DNA from: Massalongia carnosa
Taxonomy: Eukaryota
DNA: 64,000 nt
Assembly (NCBI GenBank): GCA_965645245.1
Contig: OZ287071.1
Span: 2,790,001-2,854,000, forward strand
Reading direction: 5' to 3'
The position numbers and the translations under genes are program-made. A model generated the notes under the pieces. That model worked only from the letters and a program-made list of their open reading frames with translations, was not told where the DNA came from and did not search any database. Shown here piece by piece: positions 1 to 47,220 of the stretch. Position 1 is the stretch's first letter. The number at the start of each line of letters is the position of its first letter.

Positions 1-500
1 AGTGAAAAAAGACGATTGATGCCGGAATGGTTGAAAATTCGAGGGGCTGGAAAAGACGCTCAGAAGAAGGCACGAGAATTTCTGACAAATGCATGAAATT
101 CTTCCGAGTTAAAAGACTCAACAGAGTACCTTTCTGCTGAATAGAAGATGAAATTGTGGCGCTGCATAGACGCAGAAGGCAGGAATAATTTTAGAGGATA
201 GAAACAATTCCTCTTGAGCACATGCCTCCCCCTTTGTTTTGTTGGAACTGTGACTGCAACAGGCGGAATAGTAGCACTGGGTAATTGATATGACTAGTTC
301 GACAAATGAGTTCTTGCACATGCAAAACAAACTGGGAGAAACGATTGACTTTCTACCACTACGTAGGGTAAAACTGCTCCTATTTATGCCCGTCTACCAG
401 CGATTCCAGAAGCTTCCATTTCCATCTCATCGGTTCCTTCTTCCGATGCGCTTTCTGACTTCATACAAATTTGCCACCGCCCCAAGCCTTTCCTTGCAGA

Positions 501-595
501 TTGCCTCAGTACCTCAGACGTGCGTGGCTCTATGAGCCGGCTAAGCCCCTCCGGGTTAGCCTATTTTCGCTAAGCCCCTTCGGGTTAGCGTCGCT
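501..595 (+). repeat. Left TIR of the Academ-like element
   Basis: TTGCCTCAGTACCTCAGACGTGCG...GTTAGCGTCGCT is the reverse complement of 12290-12384 with one mismatch seen. Weaker inverted similarity extends to ~686 / ~12227. Confidence 0.9.
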
Positions 596-1601
596 AATTC
601 CCTTCGGGTTAGCGGCCCTTTAGCTGACTACGCATGCTACGGGCGGCACATCTGAGCGCAAAACTCTGTATTTTTGTCAGATCCGGCTTATTTTGGTGCG
701 CGCTCATACAAATTTTTGGCTTAACCTCAAAAATCATCAAGAATCAAGTTGACGGCGGAATCAACTACGCGCAACGACATTTCATAAATTATGTAATAAT
801 AGAAATGATGCTTTGATATACATTCTATCGATTAATCAATATTTTAATTACATATCGATGCAAAATTGAGTCGCAATATCGATCTCGCGACGAGGACTCG
901 ACTTTGACTCGAAATTTCGACACCACCACAGCAGACTCAACGGGTCACTAGCTCCAGTTTTTCATTGTCGGCGCTTCTGATCATTAATCTGATCCTCCGA
1001 GCGTTGTTTTCGAAAGCCTAAAATCGTTGAATGTGATGAACTTGCTTGATATGCGTTTTGCGGGCTAAGAATCCAACTCGCGAATCGTCGAATATCGCTC
1101 GCGAACACATCGAAATGGACGATCCTATAGCGTCGATAACTCGCGAGCAGGTGAGGACCGTGATTTTAAGTAAATTCGGCTTTTATCCAAAGAATGAGTA
1201 AGTTGACGCTATCATGACTTTAGCACAAGATCAAAAGGATCTGATATTTATCGCCAAGACTGGATTTGGAAAGAGTATTATCTTTCAAGCTGTGACGAGG
1301 CGGCAACGGGGGGGCCTATTCAGGTGGTGAAGGTGGTGGCATTGCTAGCTATGACTATACTAGATAGACAAGACGAACACAAGGAAGAAAGCATCAATTG
1401 CTGCAGAGATTTTCCATGTAACTCCCGGAACCCATTTCCTTACCTGAATACGGTTAGCTCCCCACTAAGGCTAACGCGATACCTAAAACATTTAGCGTGT
1501 CGGGAGGTATCGCTTAGCAGAGCATCTCGCGCTCACACCATGACAGTAGCTCCCCCTTCAAGGCCTGCTTCCACGCAGGCTTTATAGCTTCAGGGTGTGA
1601 G

Positions 1602-4600
1602 CTATCGTGGCTTGGCTGGGTATCGTTGATGAAATTCTGCTACCCTTTCCTTGGCGTTAGTAACATACTCAGCATACTCCCAGGTGGGGTCGTTCCAGCC
1701 CGTCCATTGCACCAGGTACTTTAGGCGGTTTCGAAATTTCTTGGAGTCTAGAATTTCTTCAACCTCGTATTCTTCTTCGCCTTCGACTTCAATAGGTGGT
1801 GCGGGAGGGGGGATGTGATCGGGATGAGGGTGTTGCGGCACGGGCGAGAGAAGGGATACGTGGAACACAGGATGAATTTTCATGCCGGGGGGCAGCTCGA
1901 GTTGATACGCGTATTTGCTTACCACCTTAGATATCTTGAATGGACCCAGATTTTTCCAGTCAAGCTTTCGAGCAGGTCTTTGAGTACGGATGTTCTTAGT
2001 ACTCAACCATACTTCGTCTCCTGCTTGGTAACTTGGTGCTGGTACACGATGTTCATTGGCTCCAGTCTCGTACCTGGCTTGCGCGAACTTCATCTCTTCC
2101 TGTAGCACGGACGAGATATCTTGCATCTTCTTGGCGAACTCCCCTGCGTTTAGACTGGCTGGGGATCGAGAGGGCTCAATCGATTCGAATCCCATTCTCG
2201 GATGAAATCCCATCTCGGCCAGGAATGGGCTGCACCCAGTCGTCTCGGACACTACATTGTTCCCTGTGAATTCTGCCATGGGTAACCAACTTGCCCAATC
2301 GTCTTGAAGATAGTCCGTGTAGCTTCGAAGGTATTGTTCCATGGAGGCGTTTACTCGCTCGGTTTGACCGTCCGTTTCTGGATGGAAGGCCGTTGATAAC
2401 AGGCTCTTGATACCCAGTAGTTGACAGAGCTTTTTCCAAAATTCCGATACAAAGAGCACTCCACGATCCGATACTACGGTGCTCGGCAACCCGTGTAGTT
2501 TCCAAATATCTCGAAGAAAGAGTTCAGCCAGTTCCTGAGCATTGATCGTGGTGAGGCATGGAGAGAAGTGCCGTCGTTTCGATAGACGATCGACCACCAC
2601 TAATATGGCGTCGAACCCACTACTTTCTGGAAGCCCAGTCACGAAGTCCATCGAAATATCTTGCCAGCGGCGCTCCGGGACGGGTAACGGTTTCAAGACT
2701 CCCATTTTTCCTTGACGAGAGGGCTTGCTTCTTGCACAAACTTGACAATGTTGCACGTACCTTGCTACGAACTGATAGAATCGTGGCCAGTAATAGTGAC
2801 GTTGCAGAAGATCAAAGGTCTTGGCTCGACCGGGATGACCGGCTACAGGGCTATCGTGAACGGACTTGCAAAGTCTCATCTTCAGGGCGTGTGAGTCCGG
2901 AACGTATATCTTTCCTCGATAGTGCAGTCGGCCATCCATCTCTGTGCACTCTGCCAGCGAGATTTCCTTGGAGTGTCTAGCACCTGATCGTAATAATTCC
3001 AGAATTCTCATCGGAAAGAGGTCCTTTTCCAATGCTTCTTGCCATAATTCTTCCAAGGTCTTGATTTCATCCTGATCTGAGGCGATTTCCAGAGGTTCAC
3101 TTTGTTCCGAGGCTTCAACATTTTCTTCGAGAGGTTCATCTGCTAATCCGTTCGCTAGAAGTTCAAGATTTCGAGGTTTCAAGACCACTTGATGTTGAAT
3201 TTTTATCCGTGGATCATCCTCCCCCTTCGGTAGGTCTTGAGACCTTCTAGTCAGGGCGTCGGGTTTTCCACCGCTTTTCCCTGGGCGGTACATGATCTGG
3301 AAATCGAAGCGGGAGAGATACTCGGACCAGCGTGCTTGACGACGACTGAGCTGTTTCGTTGTCATGAAGTATTCGAGATTCTTATGATCAGAAATGACTT
3401 GAATAGGAAAGGCGGCTCCTTCGAGCTCGGATCTCCATTCCTCGAAAGCTCGAATGATGGCCATGAGTTCCTTGTCATAGATCTCGTAATTGATTTCCGC
3501 GGGGGCGTGTTTTTTCGAGAAGAAGGCTACAGGGCGTAGAACTCCCTCGTCATCGTACTGTGAGAGTACACCCCCCACTACCCAGTCGGAAGCGTCAACT
3601 TCTACCACGATTTTCTTTTCAGGATCGAAATGCATCAGAATGAGATCGCTAACAAATGCGTTTTTTAGCCTTTGAAACGCGGCCTCACACTCGGAGTTCC
3701 AAGAGAACACGGTCCCCTTTTTCGTCAGTTTGATCAGGGGCGAGGCAATGGCTGAGAAACCCTTGACGAAGCGTCTATAGAAATTTGCGAAGCCCACGAA
3801 AGCTTGAATATCCTTAATGTTCTTGGGTGTTATCCAGTCCTTGATCGTCTGAACTTTTCGTGGGTCCATCTTGATTCCTTTGTCCGAAATGATAAGTCCC
3901 AGGTAAGTGGTTTCCGTGACGAAGAATTCACACTTTTCTATGTCCAGTTGCAGACCTGCGGACCTCAGAGCTTCAAGAACTTTTCTTACGTGAATCTTGT
4001 GTTCCTTCTTTGATTTACTGTATACAAGAATGTCGTCGATATAGGCGGTGCAAAAGGCATCTAAATATTCTCGAAGAACGTCGTTGATATAGTGCTGAAA
4101 GGAGCCGGGCCCCCCTGAAAGTCCGAAAGGCAATACTTCATATTCGAAGAGACCGTACCTGGTCTTGAAAGCGGTCATCCATTCTTGCCCGCTCTGCATT
4201 CGTAGCTTGTTGAAAGCCGCGATGATGTCAAACTTAGAGAAAATCATGGCCTTGGCAAGACGATCTAGTGTTTCTTGAATCAGTGGTATTGGATAGCGAT
4301 TCTTGATCGTGATCGCGTTCAGAGCTCGATAGTCTACACAGAAACGCAGTCCTCCCGACGGTTTTCGGGCGAATAACACGGGCGAGGAGCAGGGCGAGGA
4401 GCTGGCACGAATAAATCCTTTGGCTAGGTTTTCTTTCAAGTATTTCTGCAAGACTAGTAGTTCAGGAGCTGACATCTTGTACAGCGGGCCTGACGAGGGT
4501 ATGGCTCCTTCCTTGAGAACGATTTTATGATCGTAGGAGCGGTGCGGGGGTAGTTTATCGGCTTCTTGCTTGGAGAAGACGTCTAGAAGATCGTGAAATT

Positions 4601-5546
4601 CCACGGGCACTATACTGGCGGGATCGATGATTTTCTTGGGCTTCAAGGACTTGGCGATATCTTCGAGGGACGAGGCGGAGAGATTGACTTTCTCTCTCGG
4701 ATTTCTGAGTTGTTCAAGGGCTTTGTCAATTTCATACATGGAAGCGGTGAAGATTTCGTTCTTCCGGTCCTTCATCAGGGTCGAGAATGGAGCGGCTCCA
4801 ACCATGTAAATGCTCATAGGTGAGGGATCGGGAGATTCCGTGCAGACCGTCATTGGTCGTGCGTTCGAGATCGGTGGCTCAAGAAGTGTTCGGGATTCAG
4901 GACTTGAAGGAGCGTTTAATACACTGACTTCGAGAGTTCTAGGAGTCGAGCGAGAGACCTTGTTCTCACTGACTTTCAGGGTTTCAGGAGTTTTCATACA
5001 AGAGACCTCGTTCTTGCGTGATTCGACGGTTTTCAAGGACAGGGACGAAGCGGACTCAGGAGTCCCTTCAGATGGATCAGGAAGGCCAGAAATGACAAGA
5101 GGGACGTGTTTATTCTCTAAACACTCCTGGAAACAGTACGTGGACGAGAAGGTCAGGGTATTTTCAGTCCAGCTGACGGAGGGGTCATGAATTTGAAGCC
5201 ACTTGACTCCCAGGACGACAGGATAATGACCCAGTTGGGTAACTAAGAACGAGCCTTGCTCGGAATGACGGTTTATTCGCATCCTTGACTTGATCAGATG
5301 AGTAAGTTTTCCGGCCGCCGCGGGGCGACCATCGACTACTTCGAGGATACGAGGACGGACAAGAGGGGTGAAAGGCAGGGAATTGTTTCGCGCGAAGGAT
5401 GAATCAATGAATGCGTAGCCCGAGGCACCGCAATCAATCAAAGCATGGGTGTGTATAACTCGATTTTCCACAGAGAGTGCTATAGATATGACACAATGTC
5501 TACCGTCTAACGAATCTTCTGAGAGAGAAAAGGCTGAAATCGACAC
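1602..5546 (-). CDS. pol: Gypsy Pol (protease, RT, RNase H, integrase, chromodomain), probably expressed by frameshift from gag
   Basis: LIDCGAS, YIDD, VDASD..NYEIYDKEL, GHPG..C..C, DFVT..SDRG..GQTE, HPVFHVSLL, YEVEEILD..YLVQWTGW. Confidence 0.97.
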   Translation of the reverse strand: MSISAFSLSEDSLDGRHCVISIALSVENRVIHTHALIDCGASGYAFIDSSFARNNSLPFTPLVRPRILEVVDGRPAAAGKLTHLIKSRMRINRHSEQGSFLVTQLGHYPVVLGVKWLQIHDPSVSWTENTLTFSSTYCFQECLENKHVPLVISGLPDPSEGTPESASSLSLKTVESRKNEVSCMKTPETLKVSENKVSRSTPRTLEVSVLNAPSSPESRTLLEPPISNARPMTVCTESPDPSPMSIYMVGAAPFSTLMKDRKNEIFTASMYEIDKALEQLRNPREKVNLSASSLEDIAKSLKPKKIIDPASIVPVEFHDLLDVFSKQEADKLPPHRSYDHKIVLKEGAIPSSGPLYKMSAPELLVLQKYLKENLAKGFIRASSSPCSSPVLFARKPSGGLRFCVDYRALNAITIKNRYPIPLIQETLDRLAKAMIFSKFDIIAAFNKLRMQSGQEWMTAFKTRYGLFEYEVLPFGLSGGPGSFQHYINDVLREYLDAFCTAYIDDILVYSKSKKEHKIHVRKVLEALRSAGLQLDIEKCEFFVTETTYLGLIISDKGIKMDPRKVQTIKDWITPKNIKDIQAFVGFANFYRRFVKGFSAIASPLIKLTKKGTVFSWNSECEAAFQRLKNAFVSDLILMHFDPEKKIVVEVDASDWVVGGVLSQYDDEGVLRPVAFFSKKHAPAEINYEIYDKELMAIIRAFEEWRSELEGAAFPIQVISDHKNLEYFMTTKQLSRRQARWSEYLSRFDFQIMYRPGKSGGKPDALTRRSQDLPKGEDDPRIKIQHQVVLKPRNLELLANGLADEPLEENVEASEQSEPLEIASDQDEIKTLEELWQEALEKDLFPMRILELLRSGARHSKEISLAECTEMDGRLHYRGKIYVPDSHALKMRLCKSVHDSPVAGHPGRAKTFDLLQRHYYWPRFYQFVARYVQHCQVCARSKPSRQGKMGVLKPLPVPERRWQDISMDFVTGLPESSGFDAILVVVDRLSKRRHFSPCLTTINAQELAELFLRDIWKLHGLPSTVVSDRGVLFVSEFWKKLCQLLGIKSLLSTAFHPETDGQTERVNASMEQYLRSYTDYLQDDWASWLPMAEFTGNNVVSETTGCSPFLAEMGFHPRMGFESIEPSRSPASLNAGEFAKKMQDISSVLQEEMKFAQARYETGANEHRVPAPSYQAGDEVWLSTKNIRTQRPARKLDWKNLGPFKISKVVSKYAYQLELPPGMKIHPVFHVSLLSPVPQHPHPDHIPPPAPPIEVEGEEEYEVEEILDSKKFRNRLKYLVQWTGWNDPTWEYAEYVTNAKERVAEFHQRYPAKPR

Positions 5547-5578
5547 AGGGACCCCTTCTGAACGTCTTCGGGGGCGAC

Positions 5579-6862
5579 TTAGCCCGAAGACGACGCGTTT
5601 TCCGAGACCTCAGCTAGAGAGGACTCGTTCAGCCGAGAGGTTCGCGGCTTGGTTTCTCCCTTTCGAGGGCAGACGGCCGCAAAATGTCCTGACCCCCCAC
5701 AGTAGCGGCACAACCCTTCGTTCATCCGACGGGTGACTTCTGCTTGAGGTAACTTACCTCTGTGTGTGGCGGAGAGGTCCATTGGCTCGGCGGCCGGAAG
5801 GGGAGACGGGGAGGCGGCGGAAGAAGAGACGGATCGGGGGAGGGCGACTCCTCCCGACAGGGGGTTATGAGGGGGGGTCCCCACACCAGAAGAAGGTGGG
5901 GCGGACCGGGGGGGGTATGGCTTCCGGAGGGAAGCATTGACATTCCGTTGGCGGGTGTCTAGCCGTTGGAGGAGGGTCACCAGTTCGTCGAGGTCCTCGG
6001 GAGTGATTTGGGTAACCATGAGCTGCTTCAGCTCGTCACTGATGCCTTCCAGCAGAGCTGAGCGCATTGCCTCCTCGTCGAAATTGGTATCCGGGGCAAT
6101 ACGCTGGAAGTCCGAGAGGTAGACATGGAATTCCTTATTGGCCTGGCGCAGGGACCGCAGTTCCCGCTGTGCCGTGGCCTTTTTGTCCGGGTCCCCAAAG
6201 GCCCTCTCCAACATAGCCAATAACCCTGCCACATCGGGGATACTCACTTCGTTGTGAGACTTGACGTAGGGTTGCACTTGCGCCATGGCACGACCCTCTA
6301 AGCGGCTGATGGCGTACAGAAGGCCGGCTTTGGGATTCGTGAAACGGTCTTGATTCACAAAGAGCTTCAGGTTAAGCTGGGTGACCCACTCGCGCAACTC
6401 GTCCTTCTTGCCCGAGAACTTCGGGATGTCCGGCAATTTCTCTGAGCGCGCCTCGCGCTGGGCGGTGGGTTGATGATGATGGTCACTGATCTGCTGACGG
6501 AGGCTGGCGATGGTGGCTCGAGAGGCGATGTTCTCGTTATTGGAGGTCTGCAACTGGCTACGGATATTATTATGCTCAGCTTCCAGAAAGTCATACTGAT
6601 TTGATTTTTCCGTTAGAAAGCCCTGAAGGGTCGCTGATCGGTTGGCGGACTGAATGGCCTGATGATACCATTCATGAGGGAATTTTTGGACCGATTGACT
6701 CCAGGCCTCAATAGATGCAACATGAGGGGCGAGAGAATCCTCGTCATCGAAGCTTGGGGGGGAAAGGCCAGGACTTGATTCGGAACGGGGCGTGGCTATC
6801 TTGGACGAGGAACTGGAAGCCATACTAAAGAGGTGAATGAGAAACGAGGAACGGAGCACCAC
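5579..6862 (-). CDS. gag: Gypsy Gag
   Basis: PKFSGKKDELREW retrotransposon-gag motif and CRYCGGSGHFAAVC zinc knuckle. The likely ATG is at ~6823. Confidence 0.93.
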   Translation of the reverse strand: MVLRSSFLIHLFSMASSSSSKIATPRSESSPGLSPPSFDDEDSLAPHVASIEAWSQSVQKFPHEWYHQAIQSANRSATLQGFLTEKSNQYDFLEAEHNNIRSQLQTSNNENIASRATIASLRQQISDHHHQPTAQREARSEKLPDIPKFSGKKDELREWVTQLNLKLFVNQDRFTNPKAGLLYAISRLEGRAMAQVQPYVKSHNEVSIPDVAGLLAMLERAFGDPDKKATAQRELRSLRQANKEFHVYLSDFQRIAPDTNFDEEAMRSALLEGISDELKQLMVTQITPEDLDELVTLLQRLDTRQRNVNASLRKPYPPRSAPPSSGVGTPPHNPLSGGVALPRSVSSSAASPSPLPAAEPMDLSATHRGKLPQAEVTRRMNEGLCRYCGGSGHFAAVCPRKGETKPRTSRLNESSLAEVSENASSSG

Positions 6863-9206
6863 CTGAACACGGGTGAGGTGTTCGTAATGTGACGAGGCGG
6901 CAACGGGGGGGCCTATTCAGGTGGTGAAGGTGGTGGCATTGCTAGCTATGACTATACTAGATAGACAAGACGAACACAAGGAAGAAAGCATCAATTGCTG
7001 CAGAGATTTTCCATGTAACTCCCGGAACCCATTTCCTTACCTGAATGCGGTTAGCTCCCCACTAAGGCTAACGCGATACCTAAAACATTTAGCGTGTCGG
7101 GAGGTATCGCTTAGCAGAGCATCTCGCGCTCACACCATGACACAAGCTATGCCATTAATGTTCTCTTGTCTTAAGATCGCTTTAATTATCATGCCTCTCA
7201 AGACCTTAGAAGCTCAACAGTGCAAGAAATTGAGCGTTATCGAGGGATGCAAGCCTTTCGTGTTGGACGGTGATAGTAATAATTCTTCTAATTTAAAGTT
7301 AATTCGTGAAAACAATTATACGCATGGTGTGTATTCAAATTATGATTGAGATAAATATAAAAACTTACTCGTTAATATGAATAGTTTTTACTAGCCCAGA
7401 GATAGCGACGTCAAAGCTGTTTAATCAGGAGGTTCTGAGGCATCCAAGTTTCTTCTTGAATTTATGTCTTTTAGCTCTTGATGAGATGCATCTTGTATCC
7501 GAATGGCGAGATTTCCGGCCCGAATACTTCAATCTCGGTGTGCTTCGTACACGATTACCAGATGGTATTCCTTTTCTGGGTGCGTCTGCAACGCTGGATC
7601 CAAGAACCCTAGAGAGCGTTAAAGATCGCTGTGGCTTTGATAACGAAAGTACTGTTATTCAAACAGCGCTTGATCGTCCAGAGATATACATACAGACAAG
7701 CAGTCTACAGCGGCCTATGAACAGCATGATCGATCTTCAACATCTTTTACCAACACGGGCTGAGAGTCCTTTTGATATTCCGAAAACGATTATCTTCATG
7801 GATTCAATTTCATCTATCAAAAAGGCGTGTGCGCTAATGAAAGTATGGATGAATCAATTGTCCTATCCAATTGAGGCTGCTAGTTGGGTCGCGCCTTTCT
7901 TTTCCGACATGGCCACCCAAGACAAAGAAAGGATTGCGGCTCGCTTCGAAATGCCCTCGAATCAATGTAAATTTCCTCGAATCCTGATCGCAACGGATGC
8001 ATACGGGCTTGGTATTGATAATCCAGACGTTATGAGAGTTACGCAATGGCTGCTACCCTCGTCAATGGCGAAGCTATACCAACGTTTAGGTCGTGCTTTG
8101 CGTTGCGGTCGAGGACAGGCGCATTTTACTCTTTTGCATCCTTCTTGGTGCATGGGTCCAAGAAGCGGATCAAAAATGGACGAACAGGACGGATATGACG
8201 CGGGAATCGAGATTGAATCCAAGGCCAGTAAACGCCGCATCAATCAAAAGGATGCTGATCGGCGACGAGATATGCCACCGGGTCTTTGGGAGATAATCAA
8301 TGTGCCTTCAGATGGTTGCGTTCGAGGTATTGGCTTGAATTTCTTCAATGATAAAGTGTATCCAACGTCGGCCTATGTTAAGCCGCAACCTTGCTGTTCA
8401 ATTTGCGATCCAAGTTTTCAGACATCAACAGCCGCCAATGAGATGTTAAATAGAACGGCCGAGCGTGACTCGTCTAGGCGGCCTTGGTTCACCCTTAAAC
8501 TTCGAGAATGGAGGGAGGCCAAGGCGCAGGAAAAGTTCCCAAATTCACATATGCGATACTTCCCATCATTGATAATGCCCGATGAGGTACTGAATTCTTT
8601 GACCACTTGGGCGGATCAGATTGTGGACGAGCCCACCATGCGGCGATGGATTGGTAACACATGGACTGGTATTAGGCCCTACGGCGCCGAGCTTTTAGAA
8701 ATTTTAAAGCGGGGTCAAGCAATGAGATTAGACGAGGGAGACATGTTCGAGGAATGGAAACGACACAACGACATAAAGAGAAAACGATTACCCAGCCTAA
8801 CATGCAACTCCGCCAGTATTGAATTTGAGGAACGGAGGAAAAACTGGATGATCAAACAAGGATATATGTCGAGAAAGGTTTTTAAAAAGCGAAATGCGGT
8901 CAAGAAGAAAGTCTCGAAGGAAAGCGAGAGCACGGAGCCATCGGGCGAGAATCCTGCGCCTAATCACAATATCTCCGATGCGGCGCTCGTTGTTGACAAT
9001 GTTGATGCTCTTAAATCATCGATGAAGGCATCAAAGACCAAAAAAGCGCCTCGAGATCCTATGGAAGCGTTGTCGCTGAATGTACCCATGGCCCTTCCTC
9101 CGACACGATCTAGACAAGAAAGAAAGTGCCCCGTCCGCTACCTCTGACTCTGTAAAGCCGCGCGGCGCGGATTTACATGACTAGGCTATCTCGTGGTATC
9201 GATGAT

Positions 9207-11885
9207 TTAATCAAAAAACATACCGCCGGATATCTCGAGACGGGCCATTGAAATGACAGGGCTGTCGGGGACCTGCTTTGTTTCATTGACAAAATCGGGC
9301 TCGGCTTCATACTTACCCTCAAGGTCGTCTGTTGAAATTTCTTTTGAAATTTCTTCGGAAAGATACTGCTGATTGTATTTTAATACATTTTCTCCAAGTT
9401 TCTTCAATCCCTCAACATAAAGATTAGCTGTTGGATTAGTTGAAAATCGATCATAGCTTCTTTTACAGAGTGATTTATGCGCTAGTGCCGTAGCCATGCC
9501 CCACACATCCTCTGCGGCCGATTTTGCTGGATGCCTTGAAGAGTTGACTCTTCCAAAGTAAAACTCAACGATTTCTTTGAGCTTCATAAGATATGGACCG
9601 TTGAGTGCCCAGTTCTCGAGCAAGGTGTCACTATACTTTGAAAAATAAGATCGCTCGTGCTGGAACGTCTTGAGGTTATTGTTTAGTATCTCTAAAAGCC
9701 GATCAGTCTCAAAACTCGACTCTTCGTCACCGCGTAAATTGACAAGACTATTCATTAAAATACTTTCCTGTAGCCTTATGGTCGCTGCGGAAGAATCAAT
9801 CGCATGAAGGGTGTATAGAAGAGCTTGCGCATATTTCGGGGTGCCAGCTACGCTTGCCTGAAAGATCACCGTTGCGTGGCGCAATGCGTGACGAAGTAGT
9901 CCAATATCCGCATATTTGATTGCGTATCGAAGTGTTAGATACGATTCAACGTGATCACAGAAGTTCTGATGATTCTGAAATTGTTGATCAAGCGTTGGAG
10001 GAAGCATATCTATTGACGTTGAGGGTAATTCCGCGTGAAGTTTGCGAGATATCCTGCCCAACATATTCATCCAGGTGCCATCCTGCCCGCAAGTCTGCGC
10101 TGTGAGCCACGAAATAGTTGCTTTGATTCGCTGCGGAGCATATCCATCCTTTCGTAAAAACCTAATCCACGTCCCAACGATTCTAGCTTGATAGCTCTGA
10201 ATGATCAGATCCTCTAAGGCCTGGAAATCGTTCGGCTGCACGACACGAGCGCGGCCCCACCGATCGGCGGCATATTGAAGAGTCGAAGGATCAACCGGCT
10301 GGGCCTCTCCCCAATGTATTTTATGAATAAGCTGCAGCATGTTAAAGCGAAGATGCCATAACCCTAATCCCGGTAAAATCCAGTCGAACCGATCGAAAGA
10401 TTACTCCGATATCCCACGACGTAATTCCTTAACAGATTGCATTCTCGACCATGTCTTGAGGTCACCATAGATAAGCCGAATGACGCTCGCAAACGTCGAG
10501 TCATCCTCCTTGAACTTGAACTGTCGCACAAATATATCCTCCAATATTTGAATATTATTAGATGTTGTGCTCTCATCCTTCATGACTGGTTTGATAGGAA
10601 TGTAATTGGTCTTGTATTTTTTCATCTTATTCAGCACGGGCATTGCAGTCGACCAAGGAAGTTGAACGTCGCCGATCTCTGGGCCATAAAGCGCTCGAAT
10701 CGCTGACTCTAGATGATGAAGACGAATCTAGGTACGCGGTGCATTAGCGATTGAGCGCGGTATATACACCTCGTCCTGTATTGAACTCACCTGCATCTCG
10801 AGATCACCAGTCTCCAGCTTTCGCGCAATTCTTTCAGCTGATAAAAGATGCGTGGCGGGGCGCCACATATCCTGCCTCAAAGCGCCGGCATCGAATCCTT
10901 GCCCCTGGAAAATTAGAGCGGTAGTGATTGATCTGACGTCTCTATTATCCCCCGTGCGCTCTCCTCGTTTACCTTCTGCGAAGTCAAAGTTATCGTATGT
11001 CAAGATCATGTTTGAGCCTTGTCCTAGCATCTGAACCTTTCGTTCGGCCTCCTTAATCAAGGACAACATGCGCCGCTGCAGGGTAGTATATGACATCGTC
11101 AGGTCAAAATGACAGAGTGTATCTAGAACTCGCCGCCTCGCCCCACCTTGATAAATATAAAGGCCTAAGAGGGACTGAATATTGGTCGCCTTATTTGGTC
11201 GCAATTTGTGACAAAGCATTGCCAATATAACGGTGTGCCGGCCGCTGGGAGAATCCAACGTCACATCGAGAGGTTCCTGCGGGCGAGCCTCGCGACAAAC
11301 ACTATCAATTAGCTCAAGCCATCGTGGCGCCAACTGCTTGGCGGCAGATGCAGCAAGTTTAATAGCCTCCAAGGTCCCAAACTCGACTGTCGCAGAGGGC
11401 GGCTGGAAAGGGCCAAAGGCTGCGTGATCTGCCAAAGCTTTGATTTCTTCACGAAGCACATCCGCGGCCCAAACCCATCCTCTCTCGCGAAGGATAGTGG
11501 ATATTCTACCAGGCCCAATGAGGCTTGAAAAGTCTTCTTGCCGCACAATATCGACATAGACAAAATCGAAGAGCTGGCCTTGCGCCTTTCGCATACTATG
11601 ACGGGCTCGATTCATACAAAGTGTTGATAAAAAATCTTTTACCGACCAATTTAGAGAGCTCAGAAATTTAAGCACCTCAACCAGCTTGTCGTAATCTGAT
11701 ATGCGCCGGCGGTGGCGTTTCGCGCCTCCATTTTTTTCAGGTAAGGCAGGAGGGGAGGAGGAAGAGGGTGAGCTATCATTACTGCCTGACGGCGATGGGT
11801 GGGGCCGCTTGAGCGCACCGGCGGGAGTCAAGGGACTTGTCCGTAGGTCGGTAAGTGGCGAGGAGGGGCCCCCGACAAGAGCCAT
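9207..11885 (-). pseudogene. Academ-type (DUF6589-like) transposase with one intron and one nonsense codon
   Basis: Exon 1 11885-10791, intron 10790-10728 (GTGAGT...GCTAAT...TAG), exon 2 10727-9207 with an in-frame TAA at 10401-10403. Motifs TYDNFD, DEST..NIQILE, YGDLKT, GLWH, AIKYADIG, KYA, ETDRLLE. Confidence 0.8.
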
Positions 11886-12289
11886 GGCTTTCGTCAGATA
11901 GCTTCAATCTAGATAAATCATACAATACCATTGATTGGCCGTCGTTATTCATATCATCATGATCTTTGTAACTCAATGTAATCGCGCCACATGAAAATAA
12001 TCAGTTCATCAACCTCAAAATTGAGCGAAAGCGAACAATTTATCACTTAATCGACTTTCACATCGCTTTTCTTAGCCTGACAGTAGTTATAACACATGAT
12101 TATCGAGTCATCCATCTTGAGAGGTGCGTTTTTGGTATAAAATACAGTCTCTGGTAAACTAATACGACCCTAATCATTGTATTAAATCCATAAAAGGAAT
12201 GGTTGCACTGCTAAAATTTTTATTACGCGGATCTGGCCGTAATTTTGAGTTTTGCGCTCAGACGTGCTATCGCACTGATGTTAGTCAGC

Positions 12290-12384
12290 AGCGACGCTAA
12301 CCCGAAGGGGCTTAGCGAAAATAGGCTAACCCGGAGGGGCTTAGCCGGCTCATTGAGCCACGCACGTCTGAGGTACTGAGGCAA
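12290..12384 (-). repeat. Right TIR of the Academ-like element
   Basis: Reverse complement of 501-595. Confidence 0.9.
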
Positions 12385-12696
12385 CTTGCCGAGTGTAGAT
12401 GCAAATTGCTTTGTCAGCTGGTTTCGGTACTTGGCATCGGTTGCCGTTTTAACATGTTTCATTCAAACAATTTCATATGAACGATTTTTCCCTCGATTCT
12501 TTCCTGACCGTTCTCCAATATCTGCTGAAACAAATCCTTATCCTGACTCTTTTTAAGCCAGCCCAAAAACATCGGTTGATCTATCATTGCAATTCCTATC
12601 TCGGGGACGCTGTCGAATCGCGACCGCATCAGTTGCATGTCTCCTATTTCGTCAATCACTCTCTTCCTATTTCATCAACCGCTCCCCACCTCAATC

Positions 12697-12987
12697 ATGA
12701 ATTGTAGCAGCATCATGAACAATGACTTTATTAAAACTAGTGATTCTATTGCAACGCGCGTGCAAAATGCTAAGCAGTTTTTATTAGAAAACCCCAAGGA
12801 GAGCATCGTTTGCGCTGCTCGAATCTTCAACCTTGTCGACACCACTCTATATAGTTTAATTGAACGTGAAAAGACGCCACTGAAGCCAACTGAAGGGCAG
12901 AACAAAATACTGGAGGAGCATCAGGTCAGAGCCATTCACGAATTCATTCGATCTCTGATTGCGTATGGCATTCAACCTACTCATAAA
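12697..12987 (+). pseudogene. pogo/Fot1-like transposase N-terminal fragment (psq HTH and start of CENP-B HTH)
   Basis: SIVCAARIFNLVDTTLYSLI...GQNKILEEHQ...GIQPT; cut by an LTR at 12988. Confidence 0.65.
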
Positions 12988-15900
12988 TGTAATGGGCTAC
13001 GAGACCAGTAAGCTAATCACGAGCGACACTGATCTCGAAAGGGGAAATGCTCAGCGTGAGAGGTGGAAGATAGCTACTACGTGCTGGTCTCCGAGAGTAT
13101 ACGTGATCCAAAGAACTAATGGATGTGGAAGTGCTTAGACCACCAAGAGATCCCGTCCGAGACCCAAACGTAGGTTGTTCATAGAATAAAGACTAATTGC
13201 TAACGAATACTACAGGATTCGTTCTGGTATTTATCCTACTCACCCCAAGCCTATAGCCTTGGGAGCCTTGGAACCTTAGGAGCCTTGCAACCCACATCTG
13301 ACCTTATCGCCTTACATCCAACCATCCCTCAGGATCCATCTACGAACTTTAGACAGAAAATAGTGTCAACTATCGCCCTGATAAAACTAAGGGTGTTGGA
13401 TATGCCTTTCGAGGTTATCCCTATGCTACCGCTCAAGTATCCTATGGAAGCCCCGCTCTGATGTCAGAAATATGCTTGGATTCCGGAACTTCGGTTACTA
13501 TGGGAAATCGTGCTTATCTACAGAAGCATGTTCCAGATCTCGTCATCACTAGAATGGCATCTCCGGTTCCTATTCGTGGAGTAGGTAAAGGCGAGGTAAG
13601 AACAGATGAAGTAGCTCTTGTACAGGTAAATCTTGATGGAATCTCCAAGGATGGTCTTGCTACTGGCGTAATAATCATCGAGGTCGACATAGTAGATAAC
13701 CTGAAAGTCAATCTACTCATAGGAAACGATGTCATGACGCCTCAAGGTATGACCTTAGACTTAGGGAAGCAGATCATGACGATCGATAGTTGCAAGGGCA
13801 TCAAGCTACCCATCAACAGTCGTGCCCGTGTTACTCCACACATCAAGCGCACGATCCGATCTAAGAATGCCTTCACTGTTCTTCCTGGAACGACCATGCG
13901 CGTACCAGTCACTTTCAATGGACAGTTACCAGATGACAGAGATTTTCTCTTCGAACCACAGCTGGCAGCCAGTCATGACTTGGGGCATGAGGGAGGCGTT
14001 TTCGCCCACATAGTAGACACTGACCTATCATGGGTAAACATTCATAACGCTACCAGCACTCCGGTGGTTCTTCCGAAGAGAGCTCGCCTAGGATCAGTGG
14101 TAGAATACACGCACCATGGATGCTACATGACATTACCAGCGGAAGCCCATCTAGCTACGTCAGGATGGAAGACTGGAAGATCTATAAGATCATTAATCAC
14201 AAAGGGAGCGGCCTTAATGGCTACGGCTTATGCCACATCCGTATCATCTAGTGGCACAATCGGTGTTGATACCACCACTTCGATAAAACCCACCTCAGTT
14301 ATAGCTCCCGATATGGAGATGAAGCTATTTAACGGAGTTACCGTTTATGGCCATATCGGTATGAATCAACCGCTCTCTGACCTTGTCACCGAATACCAAG
14401 ATGTGTTCATCGATCAGGGTACGACCGTGGACATTCCGGAGGAAGAATGGATGCCCATCAACCTGAAATCAGGTATCGTACCAAAACCGCCCGCGAAGGT
14501 GTACCCAATAGGACAAAGAGATAAAGAATGTATCGACACAACTTTTTGATAAGCTTCAGGAACAAGGAAAACTTAAGTTCACCACTCAACCTACAACGTT
14601 CAGCTTTCCATGCTTCGTAGTGTAAGAGGATACTCCAAGTGGACGAAAGGGTAGAGTAGTCATAGATATCAGAGGACTTAATGACATTACGGAAATAGAT
14701 AGCTATCCCTTGCCTTTACAAAGCGATATCATCGCAGCGGTCTCCGGTTATCCTTATATCAGTACGGTGGACGCAGTGGGTTGGTTCTACCAGTTTAGTG
14801 TTCAACACAAGGATCGGCACAAACTAACCGTTGTTAGTCATAGGGGACAAGAGGAATTCGGAGTAGCCTTAATGGGATATAAAGGAACTCTACCCTATGT
14901 TCAACGACAAACTGACAGGCTGCTACGGCCGTACATACCGTAAATTCGCTAGAGCTTTTATGGACGACATCATTATATTCAGCAGCACTCTGAAAGAGCA
15001 CGTAGCTCATTTACGACAGCTGTTTGACACGTTTCGACTCAAACGAGTCAGTCTAGCACCTTCCAAGTCATTTCTGGGATATCCATCCGTCATACTACTC
15101 GGTCAGCGCGTGGACTCCTTGGGAATGTTAACATCAGAAGAAAAAATAGCCGCTATTACGTCTCTGTTGTTCCCAATCAATCTACGAGACTTAGAAATAT
15201 TCCTTAGACTCACCAGGTGGTTGCGGACGTCTATCCCGCGATACGCTCAAAGAGCAAATCCTCTTCAAGAACGAAAAACCGCGCTAACACGTACGCTCCC
15301 GGTCATTTCCAAGGGTCCTGCCCGTAAACGGCAGTCTATTCGAGTATTCTTCTATGACCGACCACAGAGGAAGTGCTAGCCTTCAAGGACTTGCAAGACG
15401 CGTTCAGGTCTCCTAGATTTCTGGTTCATTTCAGCCCCAAACGCCGTCTTTACGTGGACCTAGATGCCTCGAAATCCTGGGGATTCGCCGTATAATCTAT
15501 CATGTCAAAGGCGATATTCTCATCATTCCAAGTGCTTATTCCCGCCCAAGCTGACATTGAACCGATTATGTTTCTTAGCAGGTGCCTCAACTCCACCGAG
15601 AAGAACTACTGGCCGACTGAACTAGAGATTGCCGGCATAGTATGGGTTGTACGAAAAATCAGGCACATGATAGAATCGACAGAATGCCCACCTACCATCA
15701 TATACACTGATCACTCAGCCGCTATTCCCATCTCCCGTCAAACCAGTATGACTACATCGAGCACTGATAAGCTTAACTTAAGACTCGTTCGGGCGTCACA
15801 GTACTTGTCTGGATTCAATCTTACTCTGCGTCACAAATCTGGTAAAACCAACATCGTCCCGGATGCCCTATCACGCCTTCAAGCAGACGTATCTACAGCT

Positions 15901-16671
15901 GAAAAGATAGGCGAACTGGAAGCCTTGTATGGATGCCCGGTTAACTTGGCTCAGCATGAGCTAAGTTCCCTACTACCAGACCTAGCTCCCGTAGCCTATC
16001 ACGTCACACTGGTAGAAATGGCGGATGAGTTCAAAAATAGGCTCAAAAAAGCATACGATGATGACTAATATTGGGAAAAGATTTTAAACCTAGTAAAACC
16101 AAAGGAGAGCGACCTGTCCTCAATCAACGAAGGTGAGGCAACCGAATTGACGATCGACAATTCCACCCCACCAGAAGGCTCCCGCCTTGGAATTTGCTTT
16201 CGCTATAGAGATGGATTATTATACTACGTATCAGCCGACGATGGGCGAGAGCGATTATGTATACCCGCTTCCCTAGAGGAGGAGATCTTCAGGCAAGCTC
16301 ATGACAGGACCAGTCATGGTGGCTTTCATAGAACCTATGATCGGATAGTTAACTCGATCTACATACGTCACCTCAATAAAAGATTGAGAACGTACATAGC
16401 GCATTGTCCGGAATGTCAGTTGAACCAAACCAAGAGGCACGCACCATATGGAGAACTCAATCCCATTGTCACTCCGGCTATGCCCTTCCACACCATAGCA
16501 ATGGATTTCATAGTGGCATTACCAGGGACGCCTCCAGACTGGTATGACAGTCTTCTCACCATCACTGATAAGTTCTCAAAAAAGGTGCTATTGCTACAAG
16601 GAAAGACCACTTATGACGCAGTCCAATGGGCCAACATAGTCATTGTGGCGCTCTTACAACATGATTGGGGC
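12988..16671 (+). mobile_element. Deleted and truncated Ty3/gypsy element
   Basis: The first ~360 bp match the solo LTR at 32126, then jump into pol. Motifs CLDSGTS, FMDD, DLDAS..NYWPTELE, HGGF..CPEC, MDFI. Several stops and frameshifts; ends at ..QHDWG inside integrase. Confidence 0.88.
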
Positions 16672-17022
16672 TATTGGAATTTGCCGAGATACCTGAATAT
16701 TTGCGACCGAGGTTCTTTTGCCTCCTGCTTACTAATTTCCAGATTAGGCAATCATATGCTATATGCGAAAAGCTTCAGATATCGGCACGACTTCGGCAAC
16801 TACAGTCGACTGCAAAAGGTTGGTCGCGACCCTGAATTTGGGACCACACATCAAATATTTACGCGAAAATGGCAAAATGCCGGCAAAAATCCGAATAACT
16901 ACCCTCACCGCCTACATGCCAATGAAGTCGTACTACTGGTCAGTATTGAAGCGACTTGTAGATTAGTATATGTAGATGCCATTCCCCGTCTTTTTCCCTC
17001 TCTCCTCTGCCATTTTCCCAAA

Positions 17023-18067
17023 ATGCCCCCCCCTCTCAGTGAGACCCTTCGTGAGACAATCACGCTTCGTTTTGTACGAGATGACAGCAATAAGACAATT
17101 GCATCTGTCACTGGTGTTGGCATCAAACAGATTCAACGAATGAGACGTAATTGGACTCATTTTGGAGATGTGGTTCTACCTCAATTGTCAATTGGACATC
17201 GCCCTCGTAAACTCAGTCAATTTCATGAGATTGAACTTCTGAAATATCTGGAGCAACGTCCGCATGCCTATCTGGATGAAATGTGCTGGTTCATTTGGGA
17301 CGGATTTCAGATCTCTGCAGATGAGACCACCGTTGGTCGTGCCCTAAAAAGGCTTGGTTGGAATCGAAAGAAGGTGATCAAACAAGAAGCTCAAAGAAAT
17401 CAAGGCCTTCGAGATGGATGGATGCAGAGACTCGGAGAATGGACTGCAGAGCAATTGATCTTTTTGGACGAAAGTGCAGCTTGCGAAAGAACCGGTTATT
17501 TCCTATCTCATCTTTCATCCCATCTTCGTCATTTTTCTCACTTTCTGACTAGGTGATCGACGATACGGATGGGCTCAGGCAGGCGTCCCTCCAATCATGA
17601 TTCAGGATTTGAAAAGGTCAAAGAGATGGAGCATTCTTCCTGCATTTACCGTCGATGGATATATAGCTTGGGAGGTGCATCAGGGCTCCATAACTGCCGA
17701 AATTTTCAACGACTTCGTTCGAAATCAGGTTCTTCCTCAGACGACTGCCAATGGAGGTCCTAGATCTGTTTTAGTACTAGATAATGCCAGCATTCATTGG
17801 AATCAGGAGCTTATTCAGATGTGCGAGACAGCCAACGTCACCTTGGCACGACTACCTCCTTATTCTCCAGATTTCAATCCAATTGAAACGTCGTTTGCAT
17901 TGCTAAAGGCATGGATTCGACGGAATGGAGAAATGAGTCTTTCGTACACGGAGGAGTATGGGGGATTCGGACAATTTCTTCGGGATGCAGTCAAAGATCT
18001 GAGAATGGGAGACCCCGGAAATTTATTTAGATTGGCTGGCATTCAGTATCCAACCATTTCAATCTGA
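17023..18067 (+). CDS. Tc1-like DD34E transposase (intron 17495-17552)
   Basis: N-terminal HTH region; FLDES, VLDNASIH, LPPYSPDFNPIE with 34 residues between D and E. The spliced frame is open. Confidence 0.92.
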
Positions 18068-20248: not shown

Positions 20249-20605
20249 ATCTGAGGTAAAAAATGGGGAATGGCAGAGGGAAAAAAGACGGGGAATGGCA
20301 TCTACATATACTAATCTACAAATCGCTTCAATACTGACCAGTAGTACGACTTCATTGGCATGTAGGCGGTGAGGGTAGTTTTCAGATTTTTGCCGGCATT
20401 TTGCCATTTTCGCGTAAATATTTGATGTGTGGTCCCAAATTCAGGGTCGCGACCAACCTTTTGCAGTCGACTGTATGGATATCATTCAGCCGCGCAACAA
20501 TAACAGCTTGACTGATGCTTTCTATACCACTCATTTCCAAAGCCAGCCTCTGCAAATTCCTACCAGGCTAGTTGTACAAGTCGAAGAAAGCTAGGACCTT
20601 CTATC

Positions 20606-23600
20606 ATGCCAGATAAAGATTTATGCCTATTATCTCTTGATGGTGGTGGAGTGCGAGGGCTATCGTCACTCGCAATCCTCAAGCGACTGATGGAGATCAT
20701 CAATCCGGATGCGCCGCCGAAGCCATGCGAGTATTTCGACATGATCGGAGGGACAAGTACCGGTGGATTGATTGCTATCATGCTAGGTCGTCTTGAGATG
20801 AATATCGATGAATGTATTGATGCCTATGTCGCATTGTTCGATCAAGTGTTTAAAAAAAAGCGGCATCGTGTCACAATAAACGGACACGTGCAGGGGAGAT
20901 TCGACACGGAAGAGCTGGAACGGTCGATTCGAGAAATCGTAAAGCGGAAGGAGAAGGCAGGGGAAAATGCTCTCCTCAAAGGATCAGAGAATCAGCAATG
21001 CAAGGTGTTAGTGCTTCGGAAGTTGCATTTACACGTATAATTCTAGTGATACTAATGAAAGCTAGATTTGTATGCGCTCTGAGCAAAGAGACTGCCGACA
21101 CAGTCCTTTTCACATCGTATCCTTCTCGAGGATCATCAGATATGTACCATAAGACACGAATTTGGGAGGCAGCTCGAGCCACATCTGCCGCATCATCCTT
21201 CTTTGATCCAGTTAAAATTGGCCAGTTTGAAGAAGAGTTTGTCGATGGGGCTGTGGGGGCTAACAATCCTGTCGCACATCTTTGGAACGAGGCCAAAAGT
21301 GTGTGGTCAGATGAAGTGCTTGAGGGAAACATCAAATGCCTGATATCTATCGGTACCGGTGTTCCATCCTTGGATTCTTATGGCTCAAGCCTCTTCGAGA
21401 TTGCAAAAACATTGAAAGACATTGCAACAGAGACAGAAAAAACAGCGGAGTCTTTTCATCGAGCGCATTCCGATCTCGACGATGGGAATCGCTACTTTCG
21501 TTTCAATGTTTCTCATGGACTTGAGAGTATTGGACTCGAAGATGCAGCACAGAAGAACAAGATCATGGCCGCCACAACCCGCTATGTGGCTTTGGAAAGC
21601 GTGATGAAACAAATGAAGCTTTGTGGAAATAATCTTTCAACACGAGAATGTGCGTCAATGTTTGCTTGATAATTCTTGAGTTACTAAATCCTTGAATAGA
21701 TAATGGTTCATATAAAGTGCCGTTCAGTTTGAAAGGCTTACTCCCTGTACCCAAATTCATAGCTCGTGATCAGGAAATGAATGACCTCAAGAATACCCTT
21801 TTCCCAAAACCAACTCGTGAGACTCGCCGGAAGGTGTTCGTTTTGCACGGACTGGGCGGCTCCGGCAAGACTCAGCTAGCAATCGAGTTCGCTCAAATAT
21901 CAAAGAAGATTTTCAGTTCTATTTTTTGGCTAAACGGTGATAGTAAGGAAAGTGTAAGTCAAAGTCTTGCACAGATTGCTCGGCAATTACCCCCAGATCA
22001 GATTCCGGATTCATGTATAAAATTCTCTAAAACATCCCCTGAAGAGCTAGATGAAATCATTAGCAATATTCTTATTTGGTTCAGTCGACATGAAAACAAT
22101 CAATGGCTTCTCATTTTCGATAATGTAGATCGTTCCCTTGAGGTAAATGATCCTCAATCATATGATGTGAAAGATTTTTTCCCGGAAGCCGATCATGGCT
22201 CTATTTTAATCACAAGCCGATTACGACAACTTTGACAACTCGGGCAGGACCGGCAACTTGGAAGGATGAGCGATCTACAAGGAGTAGAAGTATTACGATG
22301 CAGGATTGGACGATCAGTTGAAGGTAATGAAATTCAAGCAACAGTCTAAATCCAATTTACTAAGCATTATATAGGCCTTGATAGGATCGTCGAGAAAGTG
22401 GGTGGTCTCCCACTTGCACTTGCTCATGCAGGCTCCTATATCCACGGAACGACTACAAGTGTGAACGACTATATTCGATACTATGAAGAGACTTGGGAGA
22501 AGCTTCACAACAACAAAACGACTCGATTAATAGATTATCCTCGTAGCATTTTATCTACGTACACCATTTCCTATGAACATGTGCAACACAATGACGCGAG
22601 CGCTGCAAAATTGCTTAATCTGTTTGCATATCTCGATCATTCAGATTTATGGTATTCTTTATTCACACCTATACTTGACGAAGACGAGAGCATTATCCCA
22701 AAAGAGACATTACCTATCTGGTTTTCAAGTAGCGTGAAGACGGAATTTGATTTTACACAGAAGATTCAAATACTGCTGGATTACTCCTTGATAGAAACAC
22801 GATATGAGATCTCATCTTATGCGATTCATCCAATTATACATGACTGGTGTTTTCACTTGAATCTAACCTCTAACGACGAGATAGCTTCTTTAGCAGTTTC
22901 TGTAATTGGTTCCGCATGTCATTCCACTGGCAGTTCAGCAAACTGGCTGCATCGAAAACGACTGGCTGGTCATTGTAGTTATGTTCACTTCTGGATTGGA
23001 AAAAAACATCAAAACCTCGAAAGGAATATGAGATGGGAACAGGTACTATATCCTTCGTATCATGCTATTGGCTATTTTTCAAACGAACAAGGTAAGATGA
23101 ACGAGGCCGAAGAGATGTATCTGCGGGCATTGACAGGATACGAAAAGGCCTGGGGTCCTGATCACACATCAACGCTCGACACAGTCAACAATCTAGGAAG
23201 TCTGTATGCAGATCAAGGCAAGATGAACGAGGCCGAAGAGATGTATCTGCGGGCATTGACAGGATACGAAAAGGCCTGGGGTCCTGATCACACATCAACG
23301 CTCGCCACAGTCAACAATCTAGGGCTTTTGTATAAAGATCAAGGCAAGATGAACGAGGCCGAAGAGATGTATCTGCGGGCATTGACAGGAAAGGAAAAGG
23401 CCTGGGGTCCTGATCACACATCAACGCTCGACACAGTCAACAATCTAGGAAATTTGTATAAAGATCATGGCAAGATGAACGAGGCCGAAGAGATCTATCT
23501 GCGGGCATTGACAGGAAAGGAAAAGGCCTGGGGTCCTGATCACACATCAACGCTCACAACAGTCAACAATCTAGGGCTTTTGTATAAAGATCAAGGCAAG

Positions 23601-23921
23601 ATGAACGAGGCCGAAGAGATGTATCTGCGGGCATTGACAGGATACGAAAAGGCCTGGGGTCCTGATCACACATCAACGCTCAACACAGTCAACAATCTAG
23701 GAAATTTGTATAGAGATCAAGGCAAGATGAACGAGGCCGAAGAGATGTATCTGCGGGCATTGACAGGATACGAAAAGGCCTGGGGTCCTGATCACACATC
23801 AACACTCGACACAGTCAACAATCTAGGAAGTCTGTATAAAAATCAAGGCAAGATGAACGAGGCCGAAGAGATGTATCTGCGGGGCTCAAGCGGCTTTCCT
23901 GTGCCAGGTATGACATTCTAG
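20606..23921 (+). pseudogene. Fungal NLR: patatin-like phospholipase, NB-ARC, TPR (PLP-1-like architecture) with one in-frame TGA
   Basis: DGGGVRG, GTSTG and DGA patatin motifs; GLGGSGKT, LIFDNVD, ILITSR, GGLPLAL. Introns 21007-21065, 21650-21699, 22324-22374. TGA at 22233-22235. 42-aa TPR repeats. Confidence 0.92.
23088..23883 (+). repeat. 126-bp tandem repeats, ~6.3 units, encoding TPRs
   Basis: Units start at 23088, 23214, 23340, 23466, 23592, 23718, 23844 and are nearly identical. Confidence 0.97.
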
Positions 23922-25592: not shown

Positions 25593-25682
25593 TTGCCTCA
25601 GTACCTCGTGCGTGGCTCTATGAGCCGGCTAAGCCCCTCCGGGTTAGCCTATTTCGCTAATCCCCTTCAGGTTAGCGTCGCT
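25593..25682 (+). repeat. Third Academ TIR (left orientation); no partner seen in the window
   Basis: TTGCCTCAGTACCTCGTGCGTGGCTCTATGAGCCGGCTAAGCCCCTCCGGGTTAGC...GTTAGCGTCGCT matches 501-595 with small indels. Confidence 0.9.
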
Positions 25683-39476: not shown

Positions 39477-39502
39477 CGGTTCGGAAGTAACGCCGGCGAC
39501 AG

Positions 39503-47218: not shown

Positions 47219-47220
47219 TA

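Follow-up and report, generated by a model that had tools for sequence, protein, structure and literature searches.

Academ DNA transposons have been found in most fungal taxa, were without a Pfam match in 2017 and, in Table 1 of the survey concerned, are commonest in Pucciniomycotina (PMC5751038). Elements of the AcademH lineage combine a separate superfamily 2 (SF2) helicase gene, a DDE transposase gene and terminal inverted repeats (TIRs). Their copy number in fungi is low to moderate; a passage of PMC10799480 (citing Kojima, 2020) describes it as low in Basidiomycota, Ascomycota and Mucoromycota. According to a passage of PMC10045372, AcademH makes target site duplications (TSDs) of 9–10 bp, whereas AcademX makes TSDs of 3–4 bp and has a nuclease instead of a helicase. 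The AcademX nuclease is of the XPG type and is fused to the transposase, which presumably belongs to the same superfamily as the one reported here. Sequence analysis of a 64-kb window of the Massalongia carnosa assembly GCA_965645245.1 (64,000 nucleotides; contig OZ287071.1, positions 2,790,001–2,854,000, forward strand) identified a DNA transposon bounded by inverted repeats at positions 501–12384 of the window, with the same gene content as AcademH. This element is very probably an inactivated copy of a young, multicopy, cut-and-paste AcademH transposon in a Lecanoromycetes-like ascomycete. As such, it is a new member of an already known, rarely studied lineage, and current knowledge is not overturned.

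Compared with described AcademH elements, the window copy stands apart by its 8-bp TSD and its lichen-type host, and the present analysis shows a zinc module in its RecQ helicase and foldbacks in its ends; TSDs of 9 bp were found in distant relatives. KolobokH and Helitron also carry a helicase, the role of which is unknown or replicative according to a passage of PMC10799480. Neither of them fits the features of the window element. Helitrons have a Pif1-type helicase fused to an HUH nuclease and are not known to have TIRs or TSDs, and Kolobok makes TTAA TSDs. An earlier note on this DNA, written from the sequence alone, had called the interval AcademH-like. This reading is now supported by a DUF6589 protein, the helicase, the TIRs, the TSD, signs of mobility and the relatives with 9-bp TSDs, and the 9–10 bp that the note gave for AcademH matches the passage of PMC10045372.

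Ends, damage and copies of the element

The two TIRs (501–595 on the plus strand and 12290–12384 on the minus strand) are 95 nt long, identical at 94 of 95 positions and begin with the tip TTGCCTCAGTACCTCAGACG. The 24-nt tip TTGCCTCAGTACCTCAGACGTGCG occurs twice in the window, at the two element ends, with none expected from 100 shuffles. Immediately outside the TIRs are CTTGCAGA (493–500) and CTTGCCGA (12385–12392), which we read as an 8-bp TSD with one mismatch. By our own arithmetic, the chance that a pair of 8-mers agrees with at most one mismatch is 25/65536.

The element is inserted into a 323-bp repeat (F) with TG..CA ends, the left part of which lies at 240–492 on the plus strand and the right part at 12393–12454. 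Repeat F is itself bounded by a 5-bp TSD (TGTTT at 235–239 and 12455–12459) and is probably a solo long terminal repeat (LTR). A copy of F without the element was identified at 25293–25593 on the plus strand. Here, the sequence matching the left flank (240–500) is continuous with that matching the right flank (12385–12442) at 98% identity, and CTTGCCGA occurs once, at 25529–25536. Because the flank is repeat F, this empty site is a paralogue and not the same locus. A fragment of another left end of this transposon family follows at 25593–25690 (plus strand, 98 nt, 91% identical); it contains a small internal deletion and is separated from the empty site by 57 bp. No matching right end was found in the window. 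The position of the fragment indicates that two independent insertions of the family into the same 323-bp repeat occurred 57 bp apart. The earlier note had described the TIRs, an empty site and a best-fit 8-bp TSD with one mismatch for this copy, and all three stand, with the empty site now recognized as a paralogue.

The window copy is inactivated by a gypsy insertion and by one CAA to TAA stop in each of its two genes. The insertion is a gypsy/Ty3 LTR retrotransposon on the minus strand (1291–7142) that encodes gag, reverse transcriptase (RT), RNase H, integrase and a chromodomain. It splits the helicase gene, its LTRs (1291–1545 and 6888–7142) are identical at 254 of 255 positions, and its TSD is 5 bp (CAAGC at 1286–1290 and 7143–7147). 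We considered repeat-induced point mutation as the cause of the stops and rejected it, as the indices of the element (0.65 and 1.37) are not of the kind that this process produces.

Contigs of four public runs (X1, X2, X3 and X5, labelled as four organisms) were compared with window positions 1–13500. In all four runs a joint skips the gypsy (1285>7143) and contigs carry 1199 T>C and 10403 A>G, so that CAA (Gln) is present at both stop sites; the gypsy interior had no coverage in X3 and X5. The complete element that the earlier note had obtained by removing the gypsy and reverting two stop codons is thus represented by gypsy-free CAA copies in 4/4 runs. Run contigs of 1.8–2.0 kb have two to four differences from the window element, corresponding to about 99.8–99.9% identity. 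Among eight differences between the window and the run contigs, six involve T or A in the window against C or G, and four of those six are at CpA. The right flank at 12384 differs in X3. In X1 and X2 we found contigs in which F lacks the element (joint 497>12395, with CGAG between) and others in which the outer flank has neither F nor the element (joint 234>12455 in X1 and 228>12455 in X2). Repeat F itself is multicopy in these two runs, and their outer-flank contigs diverge more from the window, with 3 differences in 96–127 and many in 12520–12893. Such a pattern could arise if several samples contained the same fungus, if spread was very recent or if the flanks were paralogous. Among the runs with the element, one carries a lichen metagenome label.

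The helicase falls into a 90%-identity cluster of 43 members, of which 15 are listed on contigs of 1.3–3.8 Mb, and one member of the cluster was found on 10 contigs. Together with the gypsy-free CAA copies in the runs, this cluster indicates that the family is multicopy and young. Read depth over the element was about 5900 in X1, against 110–170 for single joints, and 120–170 in X2, against 13. These ratios suggest many copies, although depth cannot be equated with a count of copies. Searches of genome-contig and viral-contig collections did not recover the TIR tip.

These observations suggest an order of events at the locus. The 323-bp LTR-like repeat would have arrived first, the Academ element would then have inserted into it, and the gypsy would have inserted later into the helicase gene. 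Each gene would also have acquired one C>T nonsense change.

Helicase, transposase and distant relatives

The two genes of the element lie tail to tail, with 59 bp (9148–9206) between their stop codons. The helicase gene, on the plus strand, starts at 1115, its stop codon ends at 9147, and with one intron it encodes a product of 705 amino acids. Exon 1 (1115–1290) contains the start codon, motif 0 and Walker A, exon 2 (7148–7326) resumes after the gypsy, and exon 3 (7385–9147) runs from motif II through Helicase_C and a four-Cys zinc module to a disordered tail. The intron (7327–7384, 58 nt, GT..AG) was placed by homologue alignment, and the homologue P0019, predicted by a prokaryotic gene finder, reads through at this position. 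The TAA at 1199–1201 replaces the motif-0 Gln that is conserved in RecQ helicases. A candidate intron around 1199 (GTAAGT..TAG) was rejected: it would be only ~27 nt, the frame reads through it, and the conserved Gln falls at the stop.

The transposase gene, on the minus strand, starts at 11885, has its stop codon at 9207–9209 and encodes 871 amino acids, also with one intron. Exon 1 (10791–11885; 365 amino acids) encodes a disordered N-terminus, a helical region and the motif YDNFDF. Exon 2 (9207–10727) encodes most of DUF6589, including GDLKT, DWILPGLGLWH and ETDRLLEILNN. Between them is an intron of 63 nt (10728–10790, GTGAGT..CTAAT..TAG), and two homologues (P0003 and P0005) skip exactly this stretch. 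The true premature stop is the TAA at 10401–10403. A third in-frame stop, TAG at 10728–10730, was considered as a mutation and dismissed, since it is the end of the intron. The coordinates and homologue alignments agree with the two intron-containing, convergent genes of the earlier note.

The protein encoded on the plus strand belongs to the RecQ family of SF2 helicases and has a four-Cys zinc module. Pfam identified DEAD and Helicase_C domains in the window protein. A full-length homologue (P0031) matched WRN (9e-33) and RecQ (2e-26) among PDB sequences, in an alignment that spans the C..CC..C cluster. These four cysteines lie within residues 313–342 of the open reading frame (ORF) and are invariant in 25/25 family members. 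The model of the window ORF had a predicted local distance difference test (pLDDT) value of 75 and matched BLM, RecQ and WRN at about 1e-14 in Foldseek. VIA-align superposed model residues 1–351 on the RecQ core with a Z score of 20.9, and the RecQ-core alignments listed end at ~345–351. Comparison with true RecQ using hhalign gave a probability of 99.6 as far as the zinc module, stopping before HRDC. The Pfam family RecQ_Zn_bind was detected only below threshold, in 4/25 members.

For the HRDC-like domain that the earlier note had also assigned to this protein, support is weak, while its RecQ assignment and zinc module hold. The helical region concerned spans residues of about 374–447. Pfam HRDC had no match in the window protein and fell below the cut-off in 3/25 members (best E-value 0.002, 18.5 bits against 23.8). 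A VIA alignment to a BLM construct reaches HRDC residues (model 1–451 against chain 762–1291), with a root-mean-square deviation (rmsd) of 14. No winged-helix (RQC) match was seen, a region for which we had no separate model. The last ~20 residues (9085–9144) of the ORF at 7381–9147 lie in a disordered tail and contain a family-conserved PSxSRxxRxxPxR motif; of 25 sequences, at least 90% have its Arg581. This conserved basic tail could be a nuclear localization signal or a docking peptide. In comparison with cellular RecQ proteins (E. coli RecQ, WRN, BLM, RECQ1 and RECQ5), the element helicase shares the motif-0 Gln, the DEAD and Helicase_C core and the four-Cys zinc subdomain. It differs in its long disordered C-terminal tail with a family-specific basic end, in the location of its gene inside a transposon, in the winged-helix match, which was unseen, and in HRDC, which was only sub-threshold.

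The minus-strand protein, with stops read through as X, matched DUF6589 (E-value 7e-62) and nothing else in Pfam. Among 1.84 billion representatives, a profile search recovered 1316 proteins at an E-value of 1e-3 or below, 163 of them at 1e-30 or below, and the closest named relatives are from the lichen-forming Lecanoromycetes Teloschistes, Icmadophila and Xanthocarpia. In the AlphaFold2 model of a full-length homologue (P0007; pLDDT 81, predicted template modelling score 0.80), a large helical domain interrupts a core of beta-sheet and helices. VIA-align of this model gave Hermes (Z 11.8, 278 residues, rmsd 6.1), P element (9.8), ISCth4 (8.0), RAG1 (7.4) and Transib (7.1); the first 39 rows are DDE transposases throughout, and unrelated rows start at Z 4.5. 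As modelled, the DUF6589 protein has the core of a DDE transposase, RNase H-like and with an insertion domain made of alpha helices. Three residues of the window copy are putatively catalytic, namely an Asp in each of YDNFDF and GDLKT and a Glu in ETDRLLEILNN. Hermes (hAT), P element, Transib and RAG1 have the same predicted layout of an RNase H fold with an all-alpha insertion. Unlike them, however, the window protein has only DUF6589 as a Pfam-detectable similarity, and the window element has much longer TIRs and a helicase partner. TSDs of 8 bp are also made by hAT and P elements.

We compared the transposase with the RNase_H_Academ profile by eye, over 5 of about 19 parts of its 465 positions. 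The consensus in Supplementary File 1 of PMC5751038 includes fDNwD (2–6), yvpiirds (151–158), gdq (190–192) and eWlvP (213–217). The window protein has, colinear with these and unscored, YDNFD, YIPIKPVMKDES, GDL (GDQ in the family) and DWILP. At profile positions 16–40 only tngi was matched, and only in P0007. Pfam DUF6589 is probably the core of the Academ transposase, with a fold like that of hAT, P element and RAG1. PF20231, DUF6589 and AcademH are all absent from the supplements of PMC10799480.

Scanning metagenome contigs with the transposase alignment yielded 18 loci. Homologues of both the transposase and the helicase occur together on contigs of 5685, 10167 and 12760 nt, and a convergent helicase lies downstream of the transposase at 5/18 loci, all distant (about 24% transposase identity). 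Three complete relatives end in TTACCTCAGCAAGCTCAGAC, where the window element has its tip TTGCCTCAGTACCTCAGACG, and the terminus shared by the window element and the distant relatives is TTRCCTCAG. All three have 9-bp TSDs, which are perfect in two (L012, GCGTGTTAA; L010, CTACTTGCC) and have one mismatch in the third (L003, AGTGTGGCC/AGTGTGGCT). The closest metagenome relative (L001, 63% transposase identity) is on a contig that ends just past the transposase, so that a single end is present. Its tip is 5.9 kb upstream of the transposase start (4081–10001), as compared with about 0.5 kb in the window, which suggests a nested insertion or extra cargo. No TIRs were found at L004. Because the relatives share the gene pair, the terminus and 9-bp TSDs, and because the transposase contains the motifs of the Academ profile, membership of AcademH is very likely.

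Foldback ends and a possible role for the helicase

The ends contain repeated palindromes and a larger foldback. Three tandem copies of a 21-nt palindrome, GCTAAGCCCCTYCGGGTTAGC, occupy 538–614 (plus strand) in the left end, and two copies are present in the right end (12296–12345); in total the palindrome has seven matches in the window, with none expected. The foldback in the left end spans 513–657 on the plus strand, with CTCAGACGTGC (513–523) pairing with GCACATCTGAG (647–657), and an equivalent is found in the right end at about 12256–12372. We tested 18 ends for this structure, namely those at 501, 12384 and 25593 in the window and those of L001, L003, L007, L008, L010–L013 and L018. A stem of at least 10 pairs, beginning 12–23 nt from the tip and with its partner arm 74–156 nt further in, was found in 15/18 ends, and at most 2 of 100 shuffles equalled it. 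The foldback was absent from the window fragment at 25593, from L010 at 19383 and from L018 at 15607. Folding as single-stranded DNA gave z values of -2.5 to -9.6 in 9/10 ends. The common layout is a 12-nt tip, TTRCCTCAGYAN, followed by the foldback with a stem that starts with CTCAGAC (15/18 ends). Pairing is retained although the stem sequences vary from family to family and, in L003, even from one end to the other. As the metagenome ends are related to each other, the 18 ends are not independent cases, and we regard the foldbacks as a lead, not a result.

We also predicted a complex of transposase and helicase, using residues 225–838 of P0007 and residues 280–588 of the window helicase, a non-cognate pair modelled without alignments. 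The predicted contact scored 0.53, against 0.01 for the best of three controls, which we graded as weak support. At least 26% of contacts were common to the runs, and pLDDT of the partner was 52 or higher. The mark that this contact reached was also reached by 51/78 solved complexes and 2/108 mismatched pairs; at scores of 0.60 or below, it was reached by 5/78 solved complexes and by all four of the mismatches that passed, of 180. The predicted contact is thus likewise a lead and not a result.

We also propose how transposition might proceed. The transposase would bind the ends, with their two to three copies of the 21-nt palindrome and a foldback of 90–145 nt starting 12 nt inside the tip. 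It would then excise the element and insert it at staggered cuts 8–9 nt apart. The helicase would be an accessory subunit, held by the transposase via the C-terminal half of the helicase, and would enable the DDE site to act by opening either the ends with their palindromes or DNA of the flank or target. Both the binding of the helicase to the transposase and its opening of the foldback ends are speculative. In its most specific form, the proposal is that the AcademH helicase is a subunit of transposition docked through its C-terminal half, that its substrate is the foldback 12 nt inside the end, that unwinding extrudes hairpins needed by the DDE site, and that the ascomycete branch has shifted its stagger from 9 to 8 nt. 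Taken as a whole, we hold this combination to be unlikely.

Alternative readings, surroundings and meaning

Several observations weigh against the AcademH assignment and the role proposed for the helicase. The link to Academ was made by eye on motifs, unscored against Repbase Academ or the Academ profile. Neither an XPG nor a PHD domain was present in any of the 22 long DUF6589 proteins scanned (0/22), and no longer fused forms of the transposase were found among proteins of 1849–5000 amino acids. No helicase was detected at 13/18 metagenome loci within the contig DNA, many of them being cut by contig ends. The Foldseek E-values of the transposase model are weak, the best being 1.2e-2 for the P element transposase. 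Both introns are supported by homologue alignments only; no RNA run is listed among the 19 runs that hold the element. The TSD of the window copy is 8 bp, against the 9–10 bp reported for AcademH. As to the helicase, the contact score falls in a band where passes are more often wrong unless the contact is likely beforehand, and its role in transposition is a proposal.

Two readings would take the locus out of AcademH. In one, both genes belong to the host, as a RecQ paralogue and a domesticated DUF6589 gene that lie between inverted repeats by chance. Helicase domains derived from transposable elements are often co-opted in fungi (passage of PMC10799480), but we find this reading hardly credible in view of the TIR with its TSD and the empty site, the dozens of near-identical copies on separate Mb-size contigs, the other flank in X3, the element-free forms of the locus in X1 and X2 and the fact that both genes in the window are broken. 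In the other, a DUF6589 transposase and a RecQ-like helicase define a separate superfamily that resembles AcademH in gene content only. A full-text literature search for DUF6589 gave a single paper, in which no link to Academ is made, our comparison with Academ is without statistics, and the structural neighbours, hAT and P element, do not discriminate. Nevertheless, four colinear motifs, including the strongly conserved DNxD, match the parts of the Academ profile compared. The gene content, the separate helicase gene, the long TIRs and the 9-bp TSDs of the relatives are also those described for AcademH in the passages cited above. Basidiomycota is moreover the commonest phylum among the nearest DUF6589 clusters (Atlas), and Academ peaks in Pucciniomycotina in the PMC5751038 survey. 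We therefore consider a separate superfamily very improbable.

Within the AcademH reading, the evidence on the length of the TSD is divided. The 8-bp TSD of the window copy is real, and its basis is one measurement on one degraded copy, in which the terminus is fixed by homology to relatives with perfect 9-bp TSDs. We give nearly an even chance to the view that the family truly makes 9-bp TSDs and that the window copy lost one junction base, either once inserted or in the course of gap repair. A TSD of 9 bp was read in 3/3 complete relatives that have the homologous terminus, a passage of PMC10045372 gives 9–10 bp for AcademH, and the TSD of the window copy already contains a substitution. In addition, comparison with the paralogue and with contigs of X1 and X2 revealed a private 1-nt insertion (T at 12394) next to the right TSD, which shows that this junction has been altered. 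However, a 9-bp TSD requires an assumed 1-bp deletion at a junction, and either 9-bp form (CCTTGCCGA or CTTGCCGAG) demands that it fell exactly at the TIR boundary, whereas no indel has to be assumed at the junctions themselves if the TSD is read as 8 bp. The relatives are only ~24% identical in the transposase, so the stagger need not match. That 8 bp is the rule for the whole family is possible and, on balance, somewhat doubtful.

Much of the window outside the AcademH element consists of other repeats. Two inverted repeats of 202 nt (16801–17001 and 20275–20475) are 98% identical and 3.7 kb apart, and may be the ends of another TIR element. The ORFs between them had no Pfam match at 1e-5, except for an integrase zinc-finger fragment (16069–17556). 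At 20854–23921, a patatin-like domain precedes a long array of TPRs, for which the coding DNA is a tandem repeat of 126 nt (23074–23883), and this looks like a fungal NLR-type gene amid a stretch rich in transposable elements. The remainder of the window is largely made up of transposons (25848–30953, 34719–41375, 44361–47221, 50892–55512 and 57189–62592). These include a copia element with identical 187-nt LTRs, a gypsy with 485-nt LTRs (99.8%), a DDE_1 element (Tc1/pogo-type) with 75-nt TIRs and further LTR pairs with RT fragments.

Few transposon lineages have been studied as little as AcademH. An 8-bp TSD, if confirmed, would be a small extension of the reported 9–10 bp range. The family offers natural experimental material, as it has sharp ends, a known empty site and intact, near-identical copies, apparently in the genomes of lichen fungi. 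Should the proposal in its most specific form be true, a helicase of a TIR cut-and-paste transposon would for the first time have a testable role.

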